Virus genome (UHGV): UHGV-1561195
DNA: 12,053 bases
Reading direction: 5' to 3' (one strand)
Source of the DNA: a virus
Positions 1-12,053 of this stretch are shown here, piece by piece. The number at the start of each line of letters is the position of its first letter. Position 1 is the stretch's first letter. Made by a program: the position numbers and the translations under genes. Below the pieces are notes generated by a model. That model worked only from the letters and a program-made list of their open reading frames with translations, made no database searches and was not told the DNA's origin.

Positions 1-16
1 CGATAGGACGGTAGAA

Positions 17-457
17 ATGCAGAAATATATTTTCAGTGCTGATAAAAATGCGTTTTTCCCTGTGGAGCTTAAAATTGCTTATCAGGAAGCGGGGAAATGG
101 CCTGATGATGGAATCGAAATTGACGACACTGCTGCCGCTGAATTTATGAAGGAAGCACCAGAAGGAAAGTACAGAGGTGTCATCGACGGAATGCCAGCAT
201 GGATTGATATTCCACCACCAACACATGAAGAACAGATTGCAGCAGCTGAATTGCAAAAGCAGCAATTGATTAATAAGGCCAACGCATACATAAACAGTAA
301 GCAATGGCCTGGTAAAGCAGCTATTGGTCGTCTGAAAGGTGAGGAACTGGCGCAATATAATTTGTGGCTGGATTATCTGGACGCACTGGAACTGGTCGAT
401 ACTTCCGGTGCTCCAGATATTGAATGGCCTACGCCTCCGGCAGTTCAGGCCAGATGA
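17..457 (+). CDS. Tail fiber assembly protein, alternative copy (Tfa'/U'-like) inside the invertible segment
   Basis: ATG at 17-19. C-terminus LWLDYLDALELVDTSGAPDIEWPTPP matches the conserved tail-fiber-assembly C-terminal motif as I recall it. Lies on the opposite strand to the rest of the operon and converges on the other tfa gene, overlapping it by 29 bp, as in Mu U/U' and e14 tfaP/tfaE. Confidence 0.75.
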   Translation: MQKYIFSADKNAFFPVELKIAYQEAGKWPDDGIEIDDTAAAEFMKEAPEGKYRGVIDGMPAWIDIPPPTHEEQIAAAELQKQQLINKANAYINSKQWPGKAAIGRLKGEELAQYNLWLDYLDALELVDTSGAPDIEWPTPPAVQAR

Positions 458-1022
458 CATCCGGCGCGGTGCTGGTATCTGTTGCCGTCACCGCGTCAAT
501 GTAATCCAGCACGGCGTTTAGTCGGGTGGTTTCTGTTTGCGTCAGCTTCCGTCCGGCCTGCAATTTCAGTTGAATAAGACTAATGGACGCCATTGCAGCA
601 TTAATCAGCGACTGGCGCTGTGTTTCTGCCGCTTCTACTGCAGCACCGTGCTGTGCCTCAGTATCTGTCACCCATTTTTCCCCATCCCATTTATCGTATG
701 GCGTTAACGGTGAAAGCGTGACATAACCGTCTTTGATGGCACCGATATAATCCACTGTAACGGCAGCGCCATTTTCGGTTGAGTAAACAGTCTCATGGCG
801 ATGGTCTTCTTCATGGTGCCATCCCTTCCCCGTAAATACTGCCACTTTCCCCGAAATGTTTTCGCCCGGGTCAATATAAGTGGAACAAGCGGGCATACTT
901 ACACCAGTATTAATATATTCATCAGACCAACCCGTATATTCATACGTTACTGCATCATAATAAAAACAACGCATATCACCCGGTACTGTAGCCAGCCCAT
1001 TTTCATCAAAAACAGGTTTCAT
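429..1022 (-). CDS. Tail fiber assembly protein (Tfa/U-like)
   Basis: 197 aa. N-terminus [11 protein letters not shown]...EYTGWSDEYINTGVSMPACSTYIDP and C-terminus LDYIDAVTATDTSTAPDVIWPELP are typical of the Tfa family. Its ATG overlaps the tail-fiber stop (TAATG), indicating translational coupling. Confidence 0.8.
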   Translation of the reverse strand: MKPVFDENGLATVPGDMRCFYYDAVTYEYTGWSDEYINTGVSMPACSTYIDPGENISGKVAVFTGKGWHHEEDHRHETVYSTENGAAVTVDYIGAIKDGYVTLSPLTPYDKWDGEKWVTDTEAQHGAAVEAAETQRQSLINAAMASISLIQLKLQAGRKLTQTETTRLNAVLDYIDAVTATDTSTAPDVIWPELPEA

Positions 1023-1768
1023 TATTTAGCCCTCACCAGAAAGTTAAATGCGATGTTACGTGGCCTGACGGCAATAAAATTCACACCATCACCCACTGAA
1101 TTACTGGTGTAATGGTATCGAGAGAAACCCGGCTCGTGTGCTGATATTCCATCGTGATTAGCAATCGAATGGCCGGAGCCCTCTGGATAATTACCTCCAA
1201 ATTGCGATAAAGATGTTGCTGCCTGCCAGCTTAATAATGCTCGCCCACTATCCACCCCGCACCCATCATCCCAGATACGAATGAAATCACCCCGTGCGTC
1301 AGGTAATACCAGCGACGGAAACACTTTCGCCAGCACAGGGTAATCAGTGGCAGAAAATTTCGCTCCGTTGAACTTCAAAAACACCATACCGGACCAGCTG
1401 TTGATTACGGTATTTGGCATTGCGGCGGAGGGCCAGAAGAACGGAACTCCAATAGCCGGAGCACCTTCTCCCAAACCAAGGTTTTCGAGAGCCGTTTGCA
1501 CAGTGCCATCCGATTTGATATCGCCAAACGGATTCTTGCGGCTTAACAGCAGCGCACGAAGCGCGGTAAGCAACTGATCGTGCCGCGCCTTCTCCAGACT
1601 GGCACCGGAGGCCTCCACCACGCTGCAAAGTTCTTCCTGCAACATGTCAAAGTAGTCATCATCCAAATCGGTGGCAGGCGTACCGGTCTGGGGGTTACCA
1701 CGGGTAAAACCGTTCTTACCCGCGCCGAACTTATCCTTCTGCGCGGTTTTCGTGTCTATACGATGCAT
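1022..1768 (-). CDS. Tail fiber protein, short, with phage tail collar domain; constant N-terminal part (about aa 1-96) joined to an invertible variable C-terminal part
   Basis: 248 aa. The segment [49 protein letters not shown] matches the tail collar domain pattern (YP.LF...LPDLRG.F.R.WD.G.G.D.GRAL). GGAG-type ribosome-binding site 7-8 nt upstream of the ATG at 1768. A Hin/Gin-type crossover site lies inside the gene at 1466-1491. Confidence 0.8.
1466..1491. other. Candidate DNA invertase crossover site (gix/pix/hix-like, 26 bp): TTCTCCCAAACC-AA-GGTTTTCGAGAG
   Basis: Two 12-bp imperfect inverted half-sites flank a central AA dinucleotide. Compare hixL TTCTTGAAAACC-AA-GGTTTTTGATAA and gixL TTCCTGTAAACC-GA-GGTTTTGGATAA, both recalled from memory. 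It sits inside the tail-fiber gene at codons 93-101, where the constant/variable junction is expected. Confidence 0.6.
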
Positions 1769-1771
1769 GGA

Positions 1772-2356
1772 TTACTCCGGATATTTAAAAATTACGTAAG
1801 TATGCGACGGGCAGAGTTTGTTAAGCACACATTCGACAACGGTGTCGCCCCAGATACGCAGTGCGGAATCACAGGGATCGCCACATGTCATCCAGGTGGT
1901 GTTGGTGGCGGCTGGCATGTTGACCTGCCAGTAATACCGCCATTCAGGCGCGTTCACCGCGTCAGTACAGGCCGATGAGCAGGTGAACGTGCTTTTGTCG
2001 TATCGCGTGATGGTGGCATCCGGTCTGCCCAGGGCAGCAAGCTGTGCAAGATAAAAATCCTCGTTGATGCCGCCCGCCAGATTAACCTTCGCATCCAGTC
2101 GTTGCTGACGCTGGCGAAGGGTCTGTGTCCCTGCGGGAATACATTCATCCGGCAGGCCGCACAGACGCTCCCAGCGATTTATCAGTTCGGTGGTGGTGCG
2201 CGGATCCAGCTCCCGCATCAGGGCATCCGCACGCTGATGAATGCGGGTTAATGACGGTGCCGCACCGGCAATCGCCGGATCGCTGGCTGACCACGCCGGA
2301 CCGGGGGGCAACAGTGCCGACAACAGACGGATGTAATCATCGTTTGTCACGTCCAT
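1772..2356 (-). CDS. Mu gp48-like / DUF2313 (YmfQ-like) tail or baseplate protein
   Basis: 194 aa. Occupies the position between the J-like baseplate gene and the tail fiber, as Mu gp48 and e14 ymfQ do. Overlaps the upstream J-like gene by 10 nt. Family assignment is from memory. Confidence 0.7.
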
Positions 2357-3405
2357 GAAATCGTCCCCAGTACCGCCAGTTCATTTTTTGCAATGGAGAT
2401 ATTGTCTGCCGGTGCAAGCAACTGATGGCTGTATTCCCCGTTCGCACCGGAAATCGCCTCACTGATACGCGACACCTTCAGTTCTCCCTGCGGATAACCA
2501 TCACGCAGCAGGAACGAACGCAACTCGGCGGTGATGGCAGCCCGTATTTCCGGTGTGTCCGGCGTCACGCGGATATGAAAATCCACTTTATGCGCCACCG
2601 GCCTGAATACATACAAATCAGAGCCTGCCACCGGGGCCAGTGGCTCAATGTGTTGTCTTGCCGCCGTTTCCGTTGATTCTTCCGGAATGGGATTAATCAG
2701 GTCACTGCCGGCAATCATCACACCGACAGTCCCCGTTCCCATCCAGTGGCGGTATGTCCATGCACGGGTAATGCCGGGCACTTCTTTAGCCCAGACAACA
2801 TAGTCCCCGTCAGCCCCGCCCTGAGGCGTCCAGTAATACCGCTCAATGACGCGGGCGCGCCACGTTTCCAGATCTTCAGTATCGAATCCGCCAGTCAGGG
2901 TATCTGCAACACCGGAAGACGGCAGACCATTCACCGGCGTGACCAGGATTAATGCCGTACCGTCGTCAGCGTTACCGACCGCGCCTGCACTTGAGCAAGT
3001 GATCGGCACGCGCAGGACACCACCGGAGCTGGTTGCATCAGCAGTTGCCGTGTACTGAACCAGGTCATCGCGCTGAATCACGCTCCCGGCAGTCACCTTC
3101 AGGCCATCGCTGACACCTCCCCAGCGCATATACCCGCTGGCAGCCGTGGCCCCCTTGCGCGGACACCGTTTCATCGCAGCATGTCGCGCCAGCCAGGACT
3201 CATCGCACAGGTCAGGCAGCATGTTCATTGCCAGATAATCGATGTAACCGTAAACCGTATGCAGCGCCGCCGCATACACCTTTGCCCGCACGTCTTCATC
3301 CATGCGCCGGAGCGTGTCGCTGACGTCCAGCCTGGCGAATAAATCGTTACGGAGCATACTGATATTTTCTGCCAGCGTCGGGCGCTGAAATTCACTGTCC
3401 GCCAT
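2347..3405 (-). CDS. Baseplate J-like protein (Mu gp47 / P2 gpJ family)
   Basis: 352 aa. Its size and its position after the gp46-like gene match Mu gp47, and the sequence resembles the Baseplate_J family as recalled. ATG at 3405. Confidence 0.8.
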
Positions 3406-3820
3406 GCGTTATCGCACTCCACAGATCATCAAAAGAAATCATTACCGGTCCGTCACGACGCCAGAGAGTGATACTGTTACCCAGTTCATTAATCCCGGTG
3501 CGGCGGATATCCAGATCAATACGGGACACCACGCCATCATCAATCATCCATTGCAGGCATTCGCGGATATACCCCCTTACCGTCTGCACCAGCTGATTGG
3601 TCAGTTTGCTGCGCTGAAGCAGCCACAGTCGGGAGCCGTAACGGTCATTCTGTACCGCAGGCCAGGTATCCCCCCACCATCCCATCGGGACGTCGGCGTT
3701 GTCATCAGGCTCCGCCCGCCGCCAGGTAAACAGGGAAATCACCACGGCGCGGGTCAGCGGATCCAGCGGTGCGCTGGCGCAGGTGCGTTTACCGTTCACC
3801 GTCAGCCACAGTTCCATCAT
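3392..3820 (-). CDS. Mu gp46-like baseplate protein (gp25/W-like)
   Basis: 142 aa. Position and size match Mu gp46. ATG overlaps the upstream stop (ATGA). Confidence 0.7.
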   Translation of the reverse strand: MMELWLTVNGKRTCASAPLDPLTRAVVISLFTWRRAEPDDNADVPMGWWGDTWPAVQNDRYGSRLWLLQRSKLTNQLVQTVRGYIRECLQWMIDDGVVSRIDLDIRRTGINELGNSITLWRRDGPVMISFDDLWSAITHGGQ

Positions 3821-4365
3821 GCCTCCATCGCTTTATCCGGTTTGTCGGTGTTACTGCCCTGACCGTTCTCTCTGTGACGATGCCCGTTATAGGCAAGCCG
3901 CATCGCTGACATGGTGGTGCCGCCGGAGTCGCACAGGTCTTTCACCTGTCCTGTCACTTCCAGGTCCATTTCAAAACGTGCTTCAGGTGCATTGCGAAAC
4001 GTGATCGTTTTACCTGCACCGTCCACCACGATCCCCTCCCGGGTCAGCGTCACGGACTGCCCCTGATCGTCATAGACAGCCACCTCACCCGTCTGCAGCC
4101 CTTTCAGCCGGTAGCGACGGTCCGACACCGTAACAACCACCGCATGAGAACGGTCGCCATCCGGAAACAACACCACCGCTTCCGCACCGCTGTTTGCCCT
4201 TGCGGTAAAACCGTAGGGTTCAAGATGTTCAACCCCGGCTTTGGGTTCACCGGCAATCAGGGACACATCCACGGTCTGACATTTCGTGGCGGCACTGATG
4301 CTTTTTACCACGGCCCGCCCAATCAGGCCGAGGAGTTGTCGCTGCATGGCTTCAATCGTCCTCAT
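3817..4365 (-). CDS. Baseplate assembly/spike protein (Mu gp45 / gpV-like)
   Basis: 182 aa. Position and size match Mu gp45. ATG at 4365 overlaps the hub-gene stop by 1 nt. Confidence 0.75.
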   Translation of the reverse strand: MRTIEAMQRQLLGLIGRAVVKSISAATKCQTVDVSLIAGEPKAGVEHLEPYGFTARANSGAEAVVLFPDGDRSHAVVVTVSDRRYRLKGLQTGEVAVYDDQGQSVTLTREGIVVDGAGKTITFRNAPEARFEMDLEVTGQVKDLCDSGGTTMSAMRLAYNGHRHRENGQGSNTDKPDKAMEA

Positions 4366-5444
4366 CAGAACGGGTCCTCCTGTACTCTGGCTTTTTTCTT
4401 TTTCCGCGCGCCGGGGGCTTCGGGTTCAGGCAGATAAGCATCAGGCGGGCCGACACGGATTTCCGTCAGGGTGCCGTTCTGGTCCTGAGTAAACGTGACT
4501 TCCGAGACAAGCAGTTCGGTATTGTCGAAACCACAGACCGGATCGAAGACAATCACCCGCTGGTTGGGCTGCCACAGCGTACCGTTACCCTGTCGCCAGC
4601 CCTGCACCACATAGGTGGTTTCATCCGTCCGCGCCGCCCGTTGTCGGGCTTCAAAGTCAGCACGGGCAATACAGCCTGCCCCCGTAGCCTGCCCTGTCTG
4701 CCTGATATACATCGGACGGTAACGGGCAATAAATGCGTCCTCTGTGCGGGCCCGCAGCGCGGTGGTGGTGGCCTCACCGAAATCATCGTCGTTTCCGGCA
4801 CGCTGCCCCGCCACCTGGTAAACTGAAAACCGCTCCCGGATACTCTTCTCCGTATCACAGGAAAGGATGTTTTCCCCAAGTACCAGCGCGGTATGTGCCC
4901 GCGTTGAGCCAATACAACCAATCACCAGCCTGCCGTGCGGGTCGTCATAAGCCAGCGCCTGCTGCTGACCGAGTATTTTGTTGATCACCTCGATCACCGT
5001 TTCACCGTGATCAGGCTGGACATCCGGAATAACACCCGACGGCGCACCGCTGTTCACCACCTCAATGCCGAAAGGCGCAGCAAGCGCCTGCGCAATCTGT
5101 ACCAGCGATCGTCCGTTAAATTGTGTCGGTTCGGCTGCACAATCAATCAGGTCAGCGGTCAGACTGCGTCCGGCAATACCGGTGCTGACCGAACGGGCAT
5201 CGTAACGAACGGGCGTCGCCTCCACCCAGCCGGTGATCACCAGCTCATCACCAATCAGCACTTCCACTTTTGAACCGTTTTTAATGCGCGGCTGAAGCGT
5301 GGTGATACCCTCATCTCCCGGCCACTGGCGGGTGATCTCCACACTGAAATCCCGCGCCAGCCGTTCAATACCGGCACCGATGCGCACCGATGTCCAGCCA
5401 TTCCACTCCCGGCCATTTACCCGTAGCGTGACGTTATCGTTCAT
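4365..5444 (-). CDS. Baseplate hub / late control D-like protein (Mu gp44, P2 gpD family)
   Basis: 359 aa. Follows the DNA circulation protein as in Mu. Basic C-terminal tail ARKKKKARVQEDPF. Translationally coupled to both neighbours. Confidence 0.75.
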   Translation of the reverse strand: MNDNVTLRVNGREWNGWTSVRIGAGIERLARDFSVEITRQWPGDEGITTLQPRIKNGSKVEVLIGDELVITGWVEATPVRYDARSVSTGIAGRSLTADLIDCAAEPTQFNGRSLVQIAQALAAPFGIEVVNSGAPSGVIPDVQPDHGETVIEVINKILGQQQALAYDDPHGRLVIGCIGSTRAHTALVLGENILSCDTEKSIRERFSVYQVAGQRAGNDDDFGEATTTALRARTEDAFIARYRPMYIRQTGQATGAGCIARADFEARQRAARTDETTYVVQGWRQGNGTLWQPNQRVIVFDPVCGFDNTELLVSEVTFTQDQNGTLTEIRVGPPDAYLPEPEAPGARKKKKARVQEDPF

Positions 5445-6817
5445 TGCACTGGCACCTTCAGAGGGATCACCGGCACAAAACCGGGATGCGTAATGGCATT
5501 ACGCCGGATAATGTCCGCGTCACGCGCCGCGTTATCAAACCAGGTCGCCGCCAGCACCAGCGCGGGTAAAACCTCATCCGGTGTGCGCTGAATGATCCGT
5601 GCAGACTGTTCAAGGCGCGTGTTGATATCCGCATTCAGATCTGCTTTCACCCGGCGCAGCGCCAGAAACAGCGCATCACTGGTTGTACGGGACAACTCCT
5701 TATCAATTGCCGTATTCAGTGTGTCGCGAATGTCGGTCAGTTCTTCCCACGTTGGCAGGTCAACCGTGTTTTTCACCGCCGGTGCATTGTTCAGTGCCGG
5801 ATGCGTGACAGAAGGCCAGCCGGTGCTCTGCGCGGGTGTTGTTGACTGCCCCACTGTGGCATTCTGCATCACCGCGGAAGTTGTTGGCGCAGGCAATCGT
5901 GTGACGGCATACGCCGCTTCGCTGATTGCGGTCGTACGAAGGGTGCTGGCAACCACGTTACGCTGCTGCGTCGCCGTGGCGGTGGTTTTACTGTCCGTTT
6001 TCCAGACGCCGCGCGGTTGCAGATCGCTGCCGAGGCTGACACCGGAAAGCGTTTTGATCATGGTGACCAGGTCGCTGGCGTTACCATAAAGGCGTTTCCC
6101 GGTACGCCACATTTTCTGCACCTGCTCAACGAAATTTTTGCCTGACGATGGCGGCGGCAGAAGTACCGAGATATCCCCCTGCAACAGCCTGGCAGCATCC
6201 GATACGGCAGAATCCACCACTTTCATCGTATCAGAAACATACCCCAGCATTATGCTGGCATTACCAATAACGTCGTTCTGCACAAAATCTGCCACGCCAT
6301 CGATACTGAAACCACTGAAGCTGTCACTGATGCAGTCATCCAGTGCAGAACAGGATGACATCAGCGTCTGCGCCGTCGCCGCACCTGAAGTGGGGTAAGA
6401 GAGTTCTCCCGCTTCGACAAACTTCAGGTCAAAGCGGACAATACGCCCTTCACTCTTCGATGTGCTGACCCGAACTTCCCCGTCAACACAGACTTTCAGC
6501 TCACCGTAAGTCGGATGGACAAGCGTGCCGGGACCGGGTTTATTCAGCGCTTCAATCAGGCGATCGCGCTGGTCAAAGCAGTCATCTCCCACCACATAAG
6601 CTGTGATGGACGGGCGGAAAGTGATTTTCCCCAGGTCTTCGGTATAGGGTTTGTCGCGGTTCGGGTATTCGTGTGTTTCCACACGGCGACCGGTTCCCGC
6701 ACTTTCTTCTTCAACCTTAAACGATACGCCGCGAAATGACGCGTCCTGAAGTCTGTCACGCCAGCCTGAAGACGACGAAAGTAATGAAGGTCGGGTGGGA
6801 AATGAGGATAAATCCAT
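5441..6817 (-). CDS. DNA circulation protein (Mu gp43/N-like)
   Basis: 458 aa. N-terminal region WRDRLQDASFRGVSFKVEEESAGTGRRVETHEYPNRDKPYTEDLG resembles the DNA_circ_N domain as recalled. GAGGT ribosome-binding site 8 nt upstream of the ATG at 6817. Confidence 0.8.
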   Translation of the reverse strand: MDLSSFPTRPSLLSSSSGWRDRLQDASFRGVSFKVEEESAGTGRRVETHEYPNRDKPYTEDLGKITFRPSITAYVVGDDCFDQRDRLIEALNKPGPGTLVHPTYGELKVCVDGEVRVSTSKSEGRIVRFDLKFVEAGELSYPTSGAATAQTLMSSCSALDDCISDSFSGFSIDGVADFVQNDVIGNASIMLGYVSDTMKVVDSAVSDAARLLQGDISVLLPPPSSGKNFVEQVQKMWRTGKRLYGNASDLVTMIKTLSGVSLGSDLQPRGVWKTDSKTTATATQQRNVVASTLRTTAISEAAYAVTRLPAPTTSAVMQNATVGQSTTPAQSTGWPSVTHPALNNAPAVKNTVDLPTWEELTDIRDTLNTAIDKELSRTTSDALFLALRRVKADLNADINTRLEQSARIIQRTPDEVLPALVLAATWFDNAARDADIIRRNAITHPGFVPVIPLKVPVQ

Positions 6818-6841
6818 AGACTGACCTCAAAAAGGACTGCG

Positions 6842-8749
6842 TTATCGTGGAAAACGAAAAGGGGAATACCCCACATCGTGCGTGATTTTCATCAGGGGAT
6901 CGGCTTTGTCCGGTACATCAATTATCTTCATACCTGGCGGAGCATTCTCGAACGTGACTTTCAGCTCGCTGTGCTGTGTCATGGAAGAAGATGGATTCAA
7001 CAGCGGAACATTGGGTTTGTACTGACTCAGGCTGGCCTGATATTGCTCGTACTCTTTACGATCAAAAAAAGGCGTCCAGTCTGAAGCCAGAAACAGCCCT
7101 TTATTATCCAGCCAGTTAACCGTATCTTCAGGAACAACACTTTCCAGAGTATCTTTAACCGGCTCATACATCAGGGTTCCCAGAAAACCATATACCCCGG
7201 CCTTCCCGATAAAGCCGCGGCCTTTCCCCATCAATCCCGTTTCTGCCGATACCTTCCCCAGCGTACGCATCTCTCTGGTCACTGCGGTAATGGATTTGGT
7301 AACGTCAGCAACCCATTTGGTTGCCATAAACAGGGCAATCGCTTTCAGAACAGTTTCCCATCCCCCCATCGCCTGCGCCGTTTCATCCATCACGTGCCAG
7401 ACTTTTTTTATGACAGGACCTACGGTTTCCCAGTTATCAATAATGAGGTAAGCGCCACCAACCAGAAGAGCAATCAGCCCCTTAGCAGGCGTCATATTCA
7501 TCACACCGCCGAGAACTTTCATAATTCTGGACAAAGAGCCTGCAGCGGCTCCCACCGTCAGTAAGGCCAGACCGATTTTAGCAATGGTCTTAACGAGCTC
7601 CGGGTTTTCACGGACAAACGTTCTCACTTCCTCAAGGAGCGGTTTTACCGCTTCAAGACCATCATTAACCTCAGGAAGAAACGTTTCCCCCAGCGTGGAA
7701 GAAATGGCATCAAGTTGATTTTGCAGAAGTAAAAGCTGGTTTTCCGTCGTCGCTGCCCTCGAAGCATATTCCTTCTGCATCGAACTGCCATACTGCTGGG
7801 AATCCGCAACCCGCCTGAAGTTGGTACGCAACAAATCAAGGTTAGTCAGCAGAGGTGCTATCGCGCCCAGAGACTCTTTCCCGAACAGGGCATTCAGCAC
7901 AGCTGCCTGTTTTTCTTTAGGCACTTTAGCCATCGCATCCAGTACAGACAGCATGGTGCCCCGGGCATCTTTCTGCATATCAGCAGCTAATTTCTTCGGA
8001 TTGATCCGCAGAAAACGCAATGCCTGTTTCTGCGATTTTGTCGCAGAATTTCCCGCGGTCAGGGAAAGCATGAAGTTCTTGATCCCTGTGGCGGCAATTT
8101 CTGACTCCACGCCCATCCCGGCAATGGTTGCCCCCATTGCCGCGATTTCGCCGGAAGCCACACCTGCAACACCACCTAAAGGACCAATACGCGTAACAAT
8201 ATCGGAGATTTTCTTCGCGTTCGCCGGGCCGGTATTACCAAGGTAGTTGATTTTGTCAGCCAGCCCGGCCACTTCATCCTGCGTCATATTAAACGCAGTA
8301 CGCCACTGGGCCATCATCTGCCCGGACTCTTCAGCCGTGGTATCAAAGGCCACGCCCATCTTCACCGCATCAGTGGCAAACTGCATCAGTTCATCACGTG
8401 CAATCCCGGCCTGACCACCCGCCGCCACGATTTCAGCGATACCTTCCGCCGACATAGGCAGTTCGGTTGACAGGTCACGCACCTGCTCCGTCATGGCCTT
8501 AAACGCATCCGGCGTATCCAGACCGTCCACCACTTTGCGGACATCAGCCATCTTCGATTCAAGGGTGATGGCTGATTTTACAGGGAGTACCAGTGCCCCC
8601 ATTATTGCAGTACCCGCCCCGGCAGCGCCCAGAGCAAGGCTGGAGACTTCTTTCTGAAATCCCTTAAGCTGACGCTGCATACCTTTAAGCGGGCCGGATA
8701 GCCTGTCAACGGCGGTGATGATGGCTTTCAGCTGAAAATTATCAGCCAT
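6842..8749 (-). CDS. Tail tape measure protein
   Basis: 635 aa, Ala/Gly-rich and predicted largely helical, with a hydrophobic segment (IAKIGLALLTVGAAAG). Sits after the chaperone gene. GAGGAG ribosome-binding site upstream of the ATG at 8749. Confidence 0.85.
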   Translation of the reverse strand: MADNFQLKAIITAVDRLSGPLKGMQRQLKGFQKEVSSLALGAAGAGTAIMGALVLPVKSAITLESKMADVRKVVDGLDTPDAFKAMTEQVRDLSTELPMSAEGIAEIVAAGGQAGIARDELMQFATDAVKMGVAFDTTAEESGQMMAQWRTAFNMTQDEVAGLADKINYLGNTGPANAKKISDIVTRIGPLGGVAGVASGEIAAMGATIAGMGVESEIAATGIKNFMLSLTAGNSATKSQKQALRFLRINPKKLAADMQKDARGTMLSVLDAMAKVPKEKQAAVLNALFGKESLGAIAPLLTNLDLLRTNFRRVADSQQYGSSMQKEYASRAATTENQLLLLQNQLDAISSTLGETFLPEVNDGLEAVKPLLEEVRTFVRENPELVKTIAKIGLALLTVGAAAGSLSRIMKVLGGVMNMTPAKGLIALLVGGAYLIIDNWETVGPVIKKVWHVMDETAQAMGGWETVLKAIALFMATKWVADVTKSITAVTREMRTLGKVSAETGLMGKGRGFIGKAGVYGFLGTLMYEPVKDTLESVVPEDTVNWLDNKGLFLASDWTPFFDRKEYEQYQASLSQYKPNVPLLNPSSSMTQHSELKVTFENAPPGMKIIDVPDKADPLMKITHDVGYSPFRFPR

Positions 8750-9157
8750 GCTTCATCTCCTCATTTATACGGACGGCCTCTGCCTCCAGATCAGCAAAGT
8801 GGGAAATAGCCGTCCGGCGAAGTTCAAGGGGGTTTAATTTCCAGAACCACGCGACATTGTAGAATCGCTTCCGGAGGTCTCTTCCGTCTCCAAGCCGGTA
8901 AAAAAACGCATTACAATCATGCCTGCCTTGAAAATATCCAGCTTCGTCATCTGCGCTGCAGACGAGCGCGGGATCCCGGCCAGAAGCGGGATATATTTCA
9001 GCGCCACCTGACTGTCCATTTTCATACCACCATCAGGCGAAACAGAGAAAGGGAACCCCAGCGCCTCAATCTCGTCATACGTAGGCTCACGTATTTCCAG
9101 CACATGCAGTGTTTCTTTGTGGGCGATGATCGGTTTTTTAAGTACAAGCTCAATCAC
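8742..9157 (-). CDS. Predicted -1 frameshift-extended tail chaperone (G-T / E+E'-like fusion product)
   Basis: After a -1 slip at T-TTT-TTT (8900-8906), the new frame stays open for 52 codons (YRLGDGRDLRKRFYNVAWFWKLNPLELRRTAISHFADLEAEAVRINEEMKHG) and stops at TGA 8742-8744, overlapping the tape-measure ATG at 8749. Translated by hand from the sequence. Confidence 0.45.
8834..9157 (-). CDS. Tail assembly chaperone (Mu gp41 / P2 gpE / lambda gpG-like), in-frame product
   Basis: 107 aa, acidic, located between tube and tape measure. GTG start at 9157 overlaps the tube stop (GTGA), with an AAGGGG ribosome-binding site upstream. Contains the slippery heptamer. Confidence 0.7.
   Translation of the reverse strand: MIELVLKKPIIAHKETLHVLEIREPTYDEIEALGFPFSVSPDGGMKMDSQVALKYIPLLAGIPRSSAAQMTKLDIFKAGMIVMRFFTGLETEETSGSDSTMSRGSGN
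8900..8906 (-). other. Slippery heptanucleotide T-TTT-TTT (X-XXY-YYZ), candidate programmed -1 ribosomal frameshift site
   Basis: Seven consecutive A on the plus strand at 8900-8906. In the chaperone reading frame this reads cgT TTT TTT acc. Confidence 0.5.
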
Positions 9158-9510
9158 TGGTAATCCCCTTCTTCACCGTGGAACTCAAGATCAACCGTGC
9201 CTTCTTCGGCATTATGGTTCGCTTCACCGTGCAGCCAGGCGGACGACAATACATAGACCTGACCGTTCGCCAGCTCGGCAGTGATGGTCATCTCATCAGA
9301 CGAGGTGATTTTGCTCACCGGAAAATTCTTCGGCACCTTGAAGGTCCCTTTGACATAAGGTGCACGGTGAGTTTCCTTGCGGTCCACTGAACCGTCCAGG
9401 CCGATGATGTCATCATTGACCGTCCTGTTCATGGGCACCTCAATGCCGCCGGTCAGCGATAGCTGCTGACCGTCAATTTTGAAATAACAGGTTCCCCCGA
9501 TACGGGCCAT
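9154..9510 (-). CDS. Tail tube protein (Mu gpM / P2 FII-like)
   Basis: 118 aa. Immediately follows the sheath-like ORF and precedes the chaperone. ATG at 9510 overlaps the upstream stop by 1 nt. Confidence 0.8.
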   Translation of the reverse strand: MARIGGTCYFKIDGQQLSLTGGIEVPMNRTVNDDIIGLDGSVDRKETHRAPYVKGTFKVPKNFPVSKITSSDEMTITAELANGQVYVLSSAWLHGEANHNAEEGTVDLEFHGEEGDYQ

Positions 9511-10793
9511 TATGCAGACTCCTCTGAATACTGAAGACGGAACTGGTTAACCACGGCAAAGACACGCAACTGGTTAACATAGTCAGGCGGGAACAGCGTG
9601 TTCAGGCGGTTCGGATCGCTGGCATCACGCTCCACAACCAGGTACTGCTTAAACAGTTCGTAGTTTTCCACGATCCCCGCACGCTCAAGCTGACGGTAGG
9701 TTGCCAGCAGTTCCCCTTTGATCACCGCCGGGGTGACAATCGCCTGACCGGGACCAAAGCGGGTACCGTCACTGGCAAGCTTGTGACGCCCGTACTTACT
9801 GGTAATGACGGATTTCAGTTTGCGCAGTACATACGCGCTGGTATGCAGCGTCTCACTGTCGAGGTAGCTGTTATCCGCAACCCCGTAAGCGTTTTTCCTG
9901 TACGTGGTGACATCACGCTGAATGCGCAGTACCCCACTTTCGACATACGCCGTTGCCACGCCATGAGACAGCAGGGTCTGTTGCTCGGTCATCGTGAACC
10001 GTTTCCCCTTCGGTGCAGGCAGCATACCCACCAGCTCACCGGTCTGCGTGGGACGTGCCGGATCGTTGCGAATAAACACCGCTGCGCGGGCGGTACGGCT
10101 TGCCGCCAGCTCGTCGGCTGGCGTCTGAGTGTCTTTTTCGTATCCCGCCAGGGTAATGTGCTGCTGGTTAAACTGGTCACCTGCGGTCACCAGTTCTGAC
10201 AGCGTGCCGATCTTTGCCGTATACACATGACCATACAGCTGACGCGCATAGCTCCAGCGACCGCTGGTATCGTTCATCTCGGTCAGCATGGGTGTGCGTT
10301 TACACATCAGTCGCGCCGGGCGAAAGACTTCCCACGCCTGTTTCTCTGTCGTGGCACCGGAATACACTTCCGCGCCAAACTCGTTATCACAGGCAAAACA
10401 ATACAGGGCAACACCGGCAGAGATTGCCGATTTGCCGTTCTTACGGGGGATTTCGGTATACACCTCCCGGAAGCGGCGCAGCCGGGAGCCTTTATTGACC
10501 CAGCCAAACGCGCAGCAGATCACAAAGAGCTGCCACGGCTCCAGCGTGATGGGCATCCTCTTGAATGCCCACTCACCCTTGGTGTGCGGCAACAGCTGAA
10601 TAAATTTGGCGGCCCGTTCAGCCAGGTCCTTGTCGAAGCGGTAACGAAACGACTTACTTTTTTCCGCCATCAGATCATCAAGATGGCGCTGGCAGGCCTG
10701 AATCACAAACTGGCAGGCCACAATCTTTCCGCGAACGACATCCCGGGCATACTGATTGGCAGCATTTACGTTGGGGTAAGATTTCCGGCTCAT
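9510..10793 (-). CDS. Chimeric ORF: N-terminal about 165 aa of large terminase (Terminase_1 ATPase fragment with Walker A PRKNGKS) fused in frame to about 260 aa of tail sheath C-terminus; probable deletion-scar pseudogene
   Basis: N-terminus [24 protein letters not shown]...FGW...[18 protein letters not shown]...[24 protein letters not shown] matches lambdoid TerL N-termini as recalled. The C-terminal part ([15 protein letters not shown]...[26 protein letters not shown]) is sheath-like and sits directly upstream of the tube gene. TerL-like sequence stops near aa 165 (about nt 10290). Confidence 0.6.
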
Positions 10794-11284
10794 GATTCGA
10801 TAATTTTCAGAAACGGGTTAGTGGCTTTCTTCTGCCCCGCCAGGCCAATCAGACGCTGGCGGCTGCTGGGGTCGAGTCCGAGCATTGCCCCCGTACTGCT
10901 CATCTCGGACTCCTGTTCTTTTTTGGCGGTCAGCTCAGGATTTTTGACCATACCGCCCATTGCACCGGTGATGGTGTTGCCCTGTCTGGCAATATTTTTC
11001 ACGGCACGTCGCCAGAACTCATAGGCCACACACCACCGCTCAAGCACCGCGAGGTCAGTCACGCACAGCAGGCCCTGACCGCAGAGTTCTTTGGTTGTCA
11101 GTTGCCACATGATCGTGGCGAGAGGGAGATCTTCTTCAGCGAACCACTCCGGTGGCTCAACACCTTTGATGGGCGTAAAAACAGGTTCATCTTTATTCAG
11201 GGCTCGCTTGCCGGGGTTTCCGGCCAGCGCCTTGCGCGCCGTTGGCTTGGGGCGACGCCCGGAACGCCCCGCCGTTCCAGCCAT
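10790..11284 (-). CDS. Terminase small subunit, P27 family
   Basis: From the ATG at 11284 the protein begins [36 protein letters not shown], matching the P27-family TerS N-terminus as recalled. AGGAG lies 8 nt upstream. The ORF track's longer start at 11293 is a GTG and adds only three codons. Confidence 0.8.
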
Positions 11285-11293
11285 ATGCGGCAC

Positions 11294-11409
11294 TCCTGGT
11301 TAAATTTCATTTTTCGCGGGTATAAAAAAACGATGGGGCGGGCAGTCCGGAAGACGTCAGGTCACAGGGATTTGACCCGCCCCTCCCCTCAGGAAGTTGA
11401 GAATCATTA
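11294..11409. promoter_or_regulatory. HNH-TerS intergenic region with GC-rich inverted repeat; candidate cos / terminase recognition region
   Basis: GGGGCGGG at 11335-11342 and CCCGCCCC at 11376-11383 form a perfect 8-bp inverted repeat with a 33-nt spacer. The spacer contains a GACGTC palindrome and a GGTCA/TGACC repeat. HK97-like phages place cos between the HNH and terminase genes. Confidence 0.3.
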
Positions 11410-11760
11410 TCACTTCAACCGTTCACGGGCCGTCTTCGCCTTATGACACGGCCAGCACAGACTCTGCAGATTACTGTCGGCATCAGTGCCGCCATGTGCT
11501 TTAGGGATGATGTGGTCAACGGTTTTCGCCTCGCGCACCACACCGGCACGCAAACACAAGTGACACAGGCCTTTGTCACGCTTGAGCACACGTTCACGGA
11601 TAACATCCCATTTCGCACCATAACCGCGCTGGTGTCGGGACTGGCCTGGCTTGTATTGCTTCCAGCCTTCGCTTTTGTGGCTTTCGCAATAGCCTGACGG
11701 GTCTGTGGTGGTATTACGGCAACCTCGAGCACGGCAGGCTTTCGGGATACGAAGAGGCAC
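11410..11760 (-). CDS. HNH endonuclease (phage terminase-associated HNH)
   Basis: HNH motif CHLCLRAGVVREAKTVDHIIPKAHGGTDADSNLQSLCWPCH. Cys-rich N-terminal region KACRARGC...GYCESH. Likely starts at GTG 11758-11760 (AAGGT 6 nt upstream), which coincides with the composition boundary. The ORF track's ATG at 11817 would add 19 codons of AT-rich sequence with no ribosome-binding site. Confidence 0.75.
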   Translation of the reverse strand: MPLRIPKACRARGCRNTTTDPSGYCESHKSEGWKQYKPGQSRHQRGYGAKWDVIRERVLKRDKGLCHLCLRAGVVREAKTVDHIIPKAHGGTDADSNLQSLCWPCHKAKTARERLK

Positions 11761-11836
11761 TTTATTACCTTGATTATTTATAGGGTTAAAATAAGTATAT
11801 TCACAAAAAACATTCATTGATTATGAGAATCAAAAA

Positions 11837-12053
11837 TCAGGAAATAATACCCTCCGATTTTCCTTTGCTTATGTAAACTAATTTATCATTACCTAATGAT
11901 AACACTTGTTGAAATTGTGGCTTTATTTTTATGCATCCTCCCAAAAAATAAGCAAAACTACTTACCCCTCCAATAACATTATAAGGATAATCTACTGACA
12001 TAGATAAAACAGTTCCCGCCAGACTAAATATTTGTGAAAAATCGAACTCAAAG
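11837..12053 (-). CDS. 3' end of an unidentified AT-rich ORF entering from the right edge (hypothetical protein, partial)
   Basis: Minus-strand frame is open from the window edge to TGA at 11837-11839 and encodes ...FEFDFSQIFSLAGTVLSMSVDYPYNVIGGVSSFAYFLGGCIKIKPQFQQVLSLGNDKLVYISKGKSEGIIS. Codon usage is strongly AT-biased, unlike the phage operon. No motif recognised. Confidence 0.3.
   Translation of the reverse strand, partial: FEFDFSQIFSLAGTVLSMSVDYPYNVIGGVSSFAYFLGGCIKIKPQFQQVLSLGNDKLVYISKGKSEGIIS

Follow-up and report, generated by a model that had tools for sequence, protein, structure and literature searches.

The stretch of DNA analysed here, referred to as the window, comprises 12,053 nt of the virus genome UHGV-1561195. 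It appears to derive from a lambdoid prophage of the SfV/SfI/SfII/SfIV/e14 family, located at the thrW–proA site of Escherichia coli, whose late (structural) region it represents and from which the head genes have been removed. Fifteen genes were found in the window, 14 on the minus strand and one, a convergent tail fibre assembly (TFA) gene, on the plus strand (Table 1). Relatives of the element are cited below as loci L002–L032 where they need to be told apart.

In order to define what had been removed, the window was compared with the genome of phage SfIV (NC_022749) by blastn. Window positions 1465–10288 correspond to SfIV 17314–8491 (97.9% identity), positions 10279–11351 to SfIV 1073–1 (97.95%) and positions 11352–11759 to SfIV 39758–39351 (87.5%). 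The two sequences are collinear at ∼98% identity over window 1465–11351 (9.9 kb), and this collinearity is broken by one deletion of 7,427 nt, equivalent to SfIV 1071–8497. A three-way alignment placed the junction at the 4-nt sequence TGAC (window 10285–10282), which is common to terL (SfIV 1067–1070) and the sheath gene (SfIV 8494–8497). The resulting open reading frame (ORF) of 427 aa is in frame and passes from TerL residues 1–170 to sheath residues 242–498, the residues TE being common to both. Pfam searches detected TerL_ATPase at residues 86–175 and Phage_sheath_1/1C at residues 167–418 of the fusion, and PHROG assigned residues 3–170 to terminase and 171–420 to sheath. The alignment and both family searches agree with the initial annotation, which had described the head genes as gone and terL and the sheath gene as truncated and fused. 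In a cluster look-up the fusion protein was a singleton without a name, and neither PADLOC nor NCBIfam returned anything for it.

The 5′ 512 nt of terL remain in the window. As judged from annotation and family searches of the corresponding SfIV interval, the deletion removed half of the TerL ATPase domain and its whole nuclease domain, together with the portal, protease, major capsid, gp6-like connector and head-completion proteins. Also lost are the homologues of SfIV gp08 (Neck1/tail completion, phrog_879) and gp09 (tail terminator, PF23840), as well as the N-terminal 241 residues of the sheath, which include the whole domain-II region with its β-sandwich and the start of the sheath_1 domain. 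A complete head module (portal, protease, capsid and connectors) is therefore absent, making the element a defective member of its family, and in the packaging module the HNH gene and terS are intact while terL is truncated. The tail module had been called otherwise complete; this does not hold, since the tail terminator and the tail-completion gene were deleted as well.

Downstream of the junction, the tail genes are preserved. The nine genes from the tube to gp48, together with terS, equal their SfIV homologues in length, encode proteins with 97–100% identical residues (163 of 164 for terS) and contain no internal stops. Neighbouring genes overlap by 4, 1, 4, 4, 1, 4, 14, 10 and 1 nt or are separated by 84, 24 and 3 nt, the only sizeable gap, of 84 nt, separating the chaperone from the tape measure. 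The SfIV lengths and the measured overlaps confirm the earlier description of thirteen intact, tightly packed tail and baseplate genes with overlaps of 1–14 nt. A slippery T7 run (T_TTT_TTT in the zero frame) is located at positions 8906–8900 of the chaperone gene, from which the −1 frame is open to position 8742, fills the 84-nt gap and overlaps the tape-measure ATG at 8749, for a predicted product of 138 aa. This arrangement has the form of a classical programmed −1 chaperone frameshift, and its proposed retention is upheld at the level of sequence by the heptamer and the −1 ORF.

The fibre gene carries one arm of a Pin-type crossover site, AAACCTTGGTTTGGGAGAAG, which is present in a single copy in the window (0 expected by chance), and similarity to SfIV ends there, at position 1465. 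The partner arm and the invertase gene pin fall outside the window, on its left side: in L002 and L004, perfect 20-bp inverted repeats are found 1,794 nt apart, with a gene for a 184-aa serine invertase (Resolvase/HTH_7, Pin-type) adjoining. In L004, segment 1–1484 of the window is present at 100% identity but turned round compared with its orientation in the window, L002 and L003, indicating that the switch has flipped within the window's own lineage. The TFA gene at 17–457 is the expressed copy in the orientation carried by L004. The suggestion that the fibre switch had been retained is thus borne out by the arm in the window, the partner and invertase in L002 and the observation of both orientations. 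The same site is also present in e14 and SfIV.

Table 1. Features of the 12,053-nt window (aa, amino acids).
Feature	Coordinates	Strand	Remarks
DUF6236/phrog_23128 gene, 3′ end	11837..12053	-	287 aa in full; runs off the window; between lysis cassette and HNH gene
HNH endonuclease, packaging-associated type, upstream of terS	11410..11817	-	PF01844, 1.8e-15
Predicted cos site	11351..11352	not applicable	Matches the two ends of the linear SfIV record
terS (terminase small subunit)	10790..11293	-	PF05119, 2.4e-21; 164 aa from ATG at 11284
terL::sheath fusion ORF, 427 aa	9510..10793	-	TerL_ATPase N-terminus, Phage_sheath_1/1C C-terminus
Deletion junction, TGAC microhomology	10282..10285	-	Three-way alignment and blastn end points
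Tail tube, 118 aa	9154..9510	-	PF10618, 2.4e-33; identical to the SfIV protein
Tail assembly chaperone	8742..9157	-	PF10109; 107 aa at 9157–8834, 138 aa if −1 frameshift
Tape measure, 635 aa	6842..8749	-	PF10145, 6.2e-43; 627/635 residues as in SfIV
Mu gpN-like 'DNA circularisation' (DNA_circ_N)/baseplate hub, 458 aa	5441..6817	-	PF07157; phrog_184
Mu gpP/gp44-like baseplate hub, 359 aa	4365..5444	-	PF21683, PF22255, PF21929
Mu gp45-like baseplate spike/assembly, 182 aa	3817..4365	-	PF06890
Mu gp46-like baseplate wedge, 141/142 aa	3392..3820	-	PF07409
Baseplate J/gp47, 352 aa	2347..3405	-	PF04865, 3.1e-53; homologue of the e14 pseudogene jayE
Mu gp48/YmfQ-like baseplate wedge, 194 aa	1772..2356	-	PF10076; contains the ten-SNP patch 1799–2045
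Tail fibre, 248 aa	1022..1768	-	PHROG tail-fibre families; constant N-part 1768–1485, switchable C-part 1464–1022
Pin-type crossover site AAACCTTGGTTTGGGAGAAG	1465..1484	-	Perfect 20-bp inverted repeat in L002 and L004
TFA, 197 aa	429..1022	-	PF02413, 4.3e-28; expressed copy in the window orientation
Alternative TFA, 146 aa	17..457	+	PF02413, 4e-34; silent in the window orientation

A cos site probably lies at 11351/11352, where it was placed because the match to SfIV switches there between the two ends of its linear record. The HNH gene is 87.5% identical to its SfIV counterpart, compared with 98% for the adjoining terS, and this mosaic boundary coincides exactly with the predicted cos position. 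The DUF6236 gene, which gave no match in PADLOC or NCBIfam, is present at full length in L002 (8094–8957), flanked by the spanin and HNH genes in a position typical of morons, and is broken into two ORFs in L024.

Longer contigs (L002/L021) extend upstream of the window into genes for an S24 repressor, a cII-like protein, replication proteins, PerC, RusA, KilA-N and DUF968, followed by antiterminator Q, holin, endolysin, spanin and DUF6236. A tyrosine integrase gene adjoins proB–proA in carrier L022, and the same thrW–proA locus, with tRNA-Thr, is occupied in L015 and in strain 26561. Since repressor, replication, Q, lysis and integrase genes are found in these relatives, the window belongs to a defective whole prophage and not to a tail-only island. 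On the other side, ∼1.5 kb beyond window position 1 and past the Pin invertase, lies a gene of 1,484 codons (L016 4042–8496, minus strand) that is also present in L011, L013, L015, L018, L019 and L020. From its sequence the product is unambiguously Avs2 (AVAST type 2, a terminase-sensing STAND NTPase), with scores of 1767 bits in PADLOC and 1702 bits against the NCBIfam equivalog NF041813 (cut-off 1000). The gene occupies the cargo slot that is held by gtrABC in SfIV and was detected in 88 of 5,426 complete E. coli genomes.

The surroundings of avs2 were inspected in six of these 88 genomes. In three it sits beside apparently complete lambda-like prophages with a full-length terL, and in the other three beside heavily decayed SfV/e14-like remnants. 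In E. coli strain I4 (L029; NZ_CP195978.1 327500–341700), an IS26-bounded resistance island with qnrB19, tet(A), floR and ISCR2 is inserted in the pin gene of a remnant next to avs2. In the enterotoxigenic E. coli O6:H16 locus L032 (NZ_CP024232.1 1020300–1023260), the invertible fibre/TFA segment stands alone between two pinE copies beside avs2; here, at pao/thrW, a prophage of the same family has been reduced to an extreme remnant.

To establish how widespread the deletion is, we collected the sequences that carry its junction. They comprise two isolate genomes (GCA_029999495.1 and GCA_029998595.1) and six metagenome or read-archive contigs, all of which were found solely through an exact-protein index of the 427-aa fusion. 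Exact-pattern scans for the junction found none in genome_contigs, searched with a 36-mer, or in metagenome_contigs, searched with the junction-spanning 27-mer GCACACCCATGCTGACCGAGATGAACG. The junction was likewise absent from all 5,426 complete E. coli genomes, ∼1,141 of which hold one side of it or the other; at least 80% of the tail module is present in 209 of the 5,426, and ∼1,450 match the tail module.

The carriers are 99.97–100% identical to the window, with 0–2 single-nucleotide polymorphisms (SNPs) per ∼12 kb. Five point differences were counted across all of them, two synonymous, two missense and one nonsense, and with five substitutions a ratio of non-synonymous to synonymous rates after the deletion is not computable; the differences in L006 are a scaffold gap of Ns. 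Among complete RefSeq genomes, the best candidate for an intact parent reached 98.6% identity, and the draft loci L011, L019 and L020, which have a full-length 498-aa sheath, are much closer. Over the 8.8 kb compared, they differ from the window by 1–2 SNPs and a patch in gp48 (positions 1799–2045) of ten SNPs in 250 bp. Their contigs or loci stop in the sheath gene, and the comparison reaches no head genes. Nine of the ten SNPs are synonymous and the window agrees with SfIV at five of the ten; the cluster is a small recombination patch. Because the carriers are near-identical and the relatives with an intact sheath differ only by this patch and 1–2 SNPs, a very recent deletion is strongly supported by the sequences. 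At such divergence, far fewer than one disrupting point mutation would be expected across the ∼9 kb of tail genes. With near-identical intact-sheath relatives, the thirteen intact reading frames are therefore predicted by neutrality and are uninformative on selection. More generally, an intact, tightly packed run of genes is no evidence of selection where near-identical intact relatives exist.

Lesions were found in carriers and close relatives. In GCA_029999495.1 (L002 12045–12824; window 7485–8612), an in-frame deletion of 1,128 nt removes residues 47–422 of the tape measure (376 residues) and with them the whole conserved PhageMin_Tail domain. GCA_029998595.1 (L022) has a G>A change at window position 10532 (CAG>TAG) that introduces Q88* into the fusion ORF, and it is also without the early region from the int-proximal genes to the middle of the DUF968 gene, so that the repressor, replication, RusA and KilA-N genes are gone. 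Damage to tail genes in close relatives was among the findings that, according to the initial annotation, would speak against selection, and the tape-measure deletion of an isolate carrier is damage of this kind. An independent deletion was detected in L018 (9015–10000) and L023 (5504–6487), the latter a contig seen in seven samples. Here, terL codons 1 to ∼267 are joined to the invertible fibre segment and both head and tail are gone, and the HNH–terS region and the invertible segment are 100% identical to those of the window. In L015, nothing remains apart from int, a pair of small genes, the invertible segment, pin and avs2.

These loci can be arranged as a decay series at thrW that leads from the intact phage to the head-deleted state of the window, then to an additional tape-measure deletion or loss of the early region, then to deletion of head and tail, and finally to the invertible segment, pin and avs2 alone. 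The part that persists through the series is the avs2 defence cargo, not the tail, in line with the accepted notion that defective prophages are kept because of the cargo they carry. For a phage family that is very common in E. coli/Shigella, the window captures prophage decay at an early and cleanly dated stage.

Taken together, these results suggest, with a probability that we put at roughly 0.9, that the window derives from a recently head-deleted, early-stage defective E. coli prophage of the SfV/SfIV/e14 family and not from a purpose-built tail-only weapon. The head genes were removed by a single illegitimate recombination event of ∼7.4 kb between TGAC in terL and TGAC in the sheath gene, which took the 3′ two-thirds of terL through the first 241 sheath codons and left an ORF that is in frame, probably by chance (1 in 3). 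The downstream tail genes would be intact for lack of time to decay, the Pin invertase still flips the fibre segment, and individual strains are already in further decay. Subunits of a contractile sheath interlock through arms at both their N and C termini, and a terminator is also required for a tail. A sheath without residues 1–241 would be unable to polymerise, and because the terminator is missing too, neither a virion nor a contractile particle should be able to form. In copies that have kept the circuitry from repressor to Q and the lysis cassette, SOS induction would be expected to give Q-dependent expression of the late operon and lysis of the cell, the product being at most sheathless assemblies of baseplate, tube and fibres. 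The possibility of a recent deletion caught before decay, raised in the initial annotation as one of two alternatives, is the one favoured by the 0–2 SNPs per ∼12 kb among carriers and by the near-identical relatives with an intact sheath. The element is then an ordinary, trivial new deletion variant of a well-described family.

Some observations weigh against this interpretation. Samples of the deletion lineage come from several unrelated studies, so that at least no rapid purging has taken place. In addition, the main deletion and the tape-measure deletion of GCA_029999495.1 are both in frame, for which the joint chance is ∼1 in 9; this double in-frame state is a weak hint that selection could be keeping the operon translated.

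An element of this kind might instead be a helper-dependent defective phage, a nascent satellite for which a co-resident SfV-like prophage supplies TerL, head, sheath and terminator in trans. The cos region, HNH gene and terS are intact in the window, L021/L022 have the int, regulatory and lysis genes, and potential helpers of the SfV/e14 type are very common, as the ∼1,450 genomes matching the tail module attest. The shortened genome, at ∼81% of the SfIV length, would also fall within the usual size limits of cos packaging. However, there is no sign of horizontal spread, as the copies are near-identical and all lie at thrW–proA where the context is visible; GCA_029998595.1 has lost the early region required for excision and replication; and nothing in the element resembles the helper-manipulating genes of true satellites. 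We consider helper dependence very unlikely. Still less credence is given to the broader proposition that the headless state is non-accidental for either of two reasons, namely removal of an Avs2 self-trigger or service as a helper-dependent, cos-packageable element that supplies switchable fibres and baseplate parts; if either selection or helper dependence did apply, the window would be a snapshot of the taming of a defence-carrying prophage.

The self-trigger idea holds that deletions truncating terL were selected because Avs2 senses the TerL ATPase domain, such that loss of the prophage's own terL would relieve self-triggering. The nearby position of avs2 would fit, as would the fact that two independent deletions in the window's prophage genotype both begin within terL, and EcAvs2 activation is triggered by the ATPase domain in phage large terminases (PMC13601566). 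Against this, the L018/L023 deletion retains the entire TerL ATPase domain (residues 1–267), and avs2 coexists with full-length terL in three of the six complete genomes sampled, its neighbours in the other three being the heavily decayed remnants. Moreover, the late genes of a lysogen are silent and an induced cell dies anyway, which would leave the host little to gain. In light of the six annotated genomes and the published activation data, relief from Avs2 self-targeting was judged weak, and it is hard to maintain as an explanation.

The second alternative of the initial annotation was a tail-only system under selection, which might take the form of a domesticated R-type tailocin or other tail-derived particle whose sheath comes from another prophage or is not needed. 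Tube, tape measure, baseplate, fibres and lysis cassette are indeed found without head genes, the frameshifting chaperone, the switching of the fibres and the regulators are retained, and the terL::sheath deletion is in frame. A full-length sheath, terminator and completion proteins, and conservation across strains under purifying selection are all lacking, however. The variant is rare and clonal, being absent from the 5,426 complete genomes, its carriers include one with the 376-aa tape-measure deletion and one with a stop in the fusion ORF, and the independent L018/L023 deletion in the same genotype drops the tail entirely. Intact ORFs are moreover expected without selection, given the near-identical intact-sheath relatives. 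A selected tail-only element thus found no support and is regarded as highly improbable. Finally, although related prophages can be joined in metagenome assemblies, a chimeric contig can be dismissed, because two NCBI isolate assemblies and several ENA and Logan assemblies, made independently and on different runs, all have the same junction and 427-aa product, with the join at a 4-nt microhomology within two unrelated genes and not in a repeat.

As a recently head-deleted prophage, the element is best compared with SfIV, which together with SfV, SfI and SfII belongs to the serotype-converting lambdoid myoviruses of Shigella/Escherichia that combine an HK97-type head with a Mu-type tail. With SfIV it shares the gene order HNH–cos–terS–terL through sheath–tube–chaperone–tape measure–baseplate–fibre–TFA, the ∼98% nucleotide identity over 9.9 kb and nine tail proteins of equal length, and in relatives of the window the integrase gene lies beside proA/thrW as in the SfV/SfIV group. 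It differs in being without most of terL, all head genes, connectors, tail completion, terminator and half of the sheath gene, in the fibre C-terminus and TFA genes, which are different and lie on a Pin-invertible segment, and in its cargo, pin and avs2 being found where SfIV holds the gtr O-antigen genes.

Sequence similarity also extends to e14 of E. coli K-12, in which jayE–ymfQ–stfP (1.67 kb) is 95.5% identical to window 1461–3134. They share the 20-bp crossover site, each has a switch of the Pin type, and both are deletion derivatives, e14 having a chimeric terminase gene (ymfN) and having lost its head genes. Unlike the window element, e14 sits in icd and carries lit and mcrA instead of avs2. 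Almost nothing of its tail survives except a jayE fragment, ymfQ and the fibres, whereas the window element, at thrW, is at a much earlier stage of decay. The kinship of SfI/SfV with e14 is already in the literature (PMC3636060), and on sequence grounds e14 can be regarded as a more decayed member of the same family. The resemblance to e14 with far more of the tail retained, which the initial annotation had pointed out, is accordingly well founded.

R-type tailocins such as the R-pyocins are likewise headless and share the tube, tape measure, baseplate, fibres, chaperones, lysis cassette and SOS-type regulation. They have a full-length sheath and a tail terminator and are fixed at a conserved locus throughout a species and under purifying selection, whereas the window element has a truncated sheath and no terminator, and is a rare and clonal variant in which lesions are accumulating. 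With the tail of phage Mu (gpL sheath to gp49), the element shares the Tail_tube, DNA_circ_N (gpN), GpP, Gp45, GP46, Baseplate_J (gp47) and Gp48 families and an invertible fibre segment with a Gin/Pin-family invertase. Similarity to Mu is at the family level only: head, packaging, regulation and lifestyle are lambdoid or HK97-like, and the element is not transposable.

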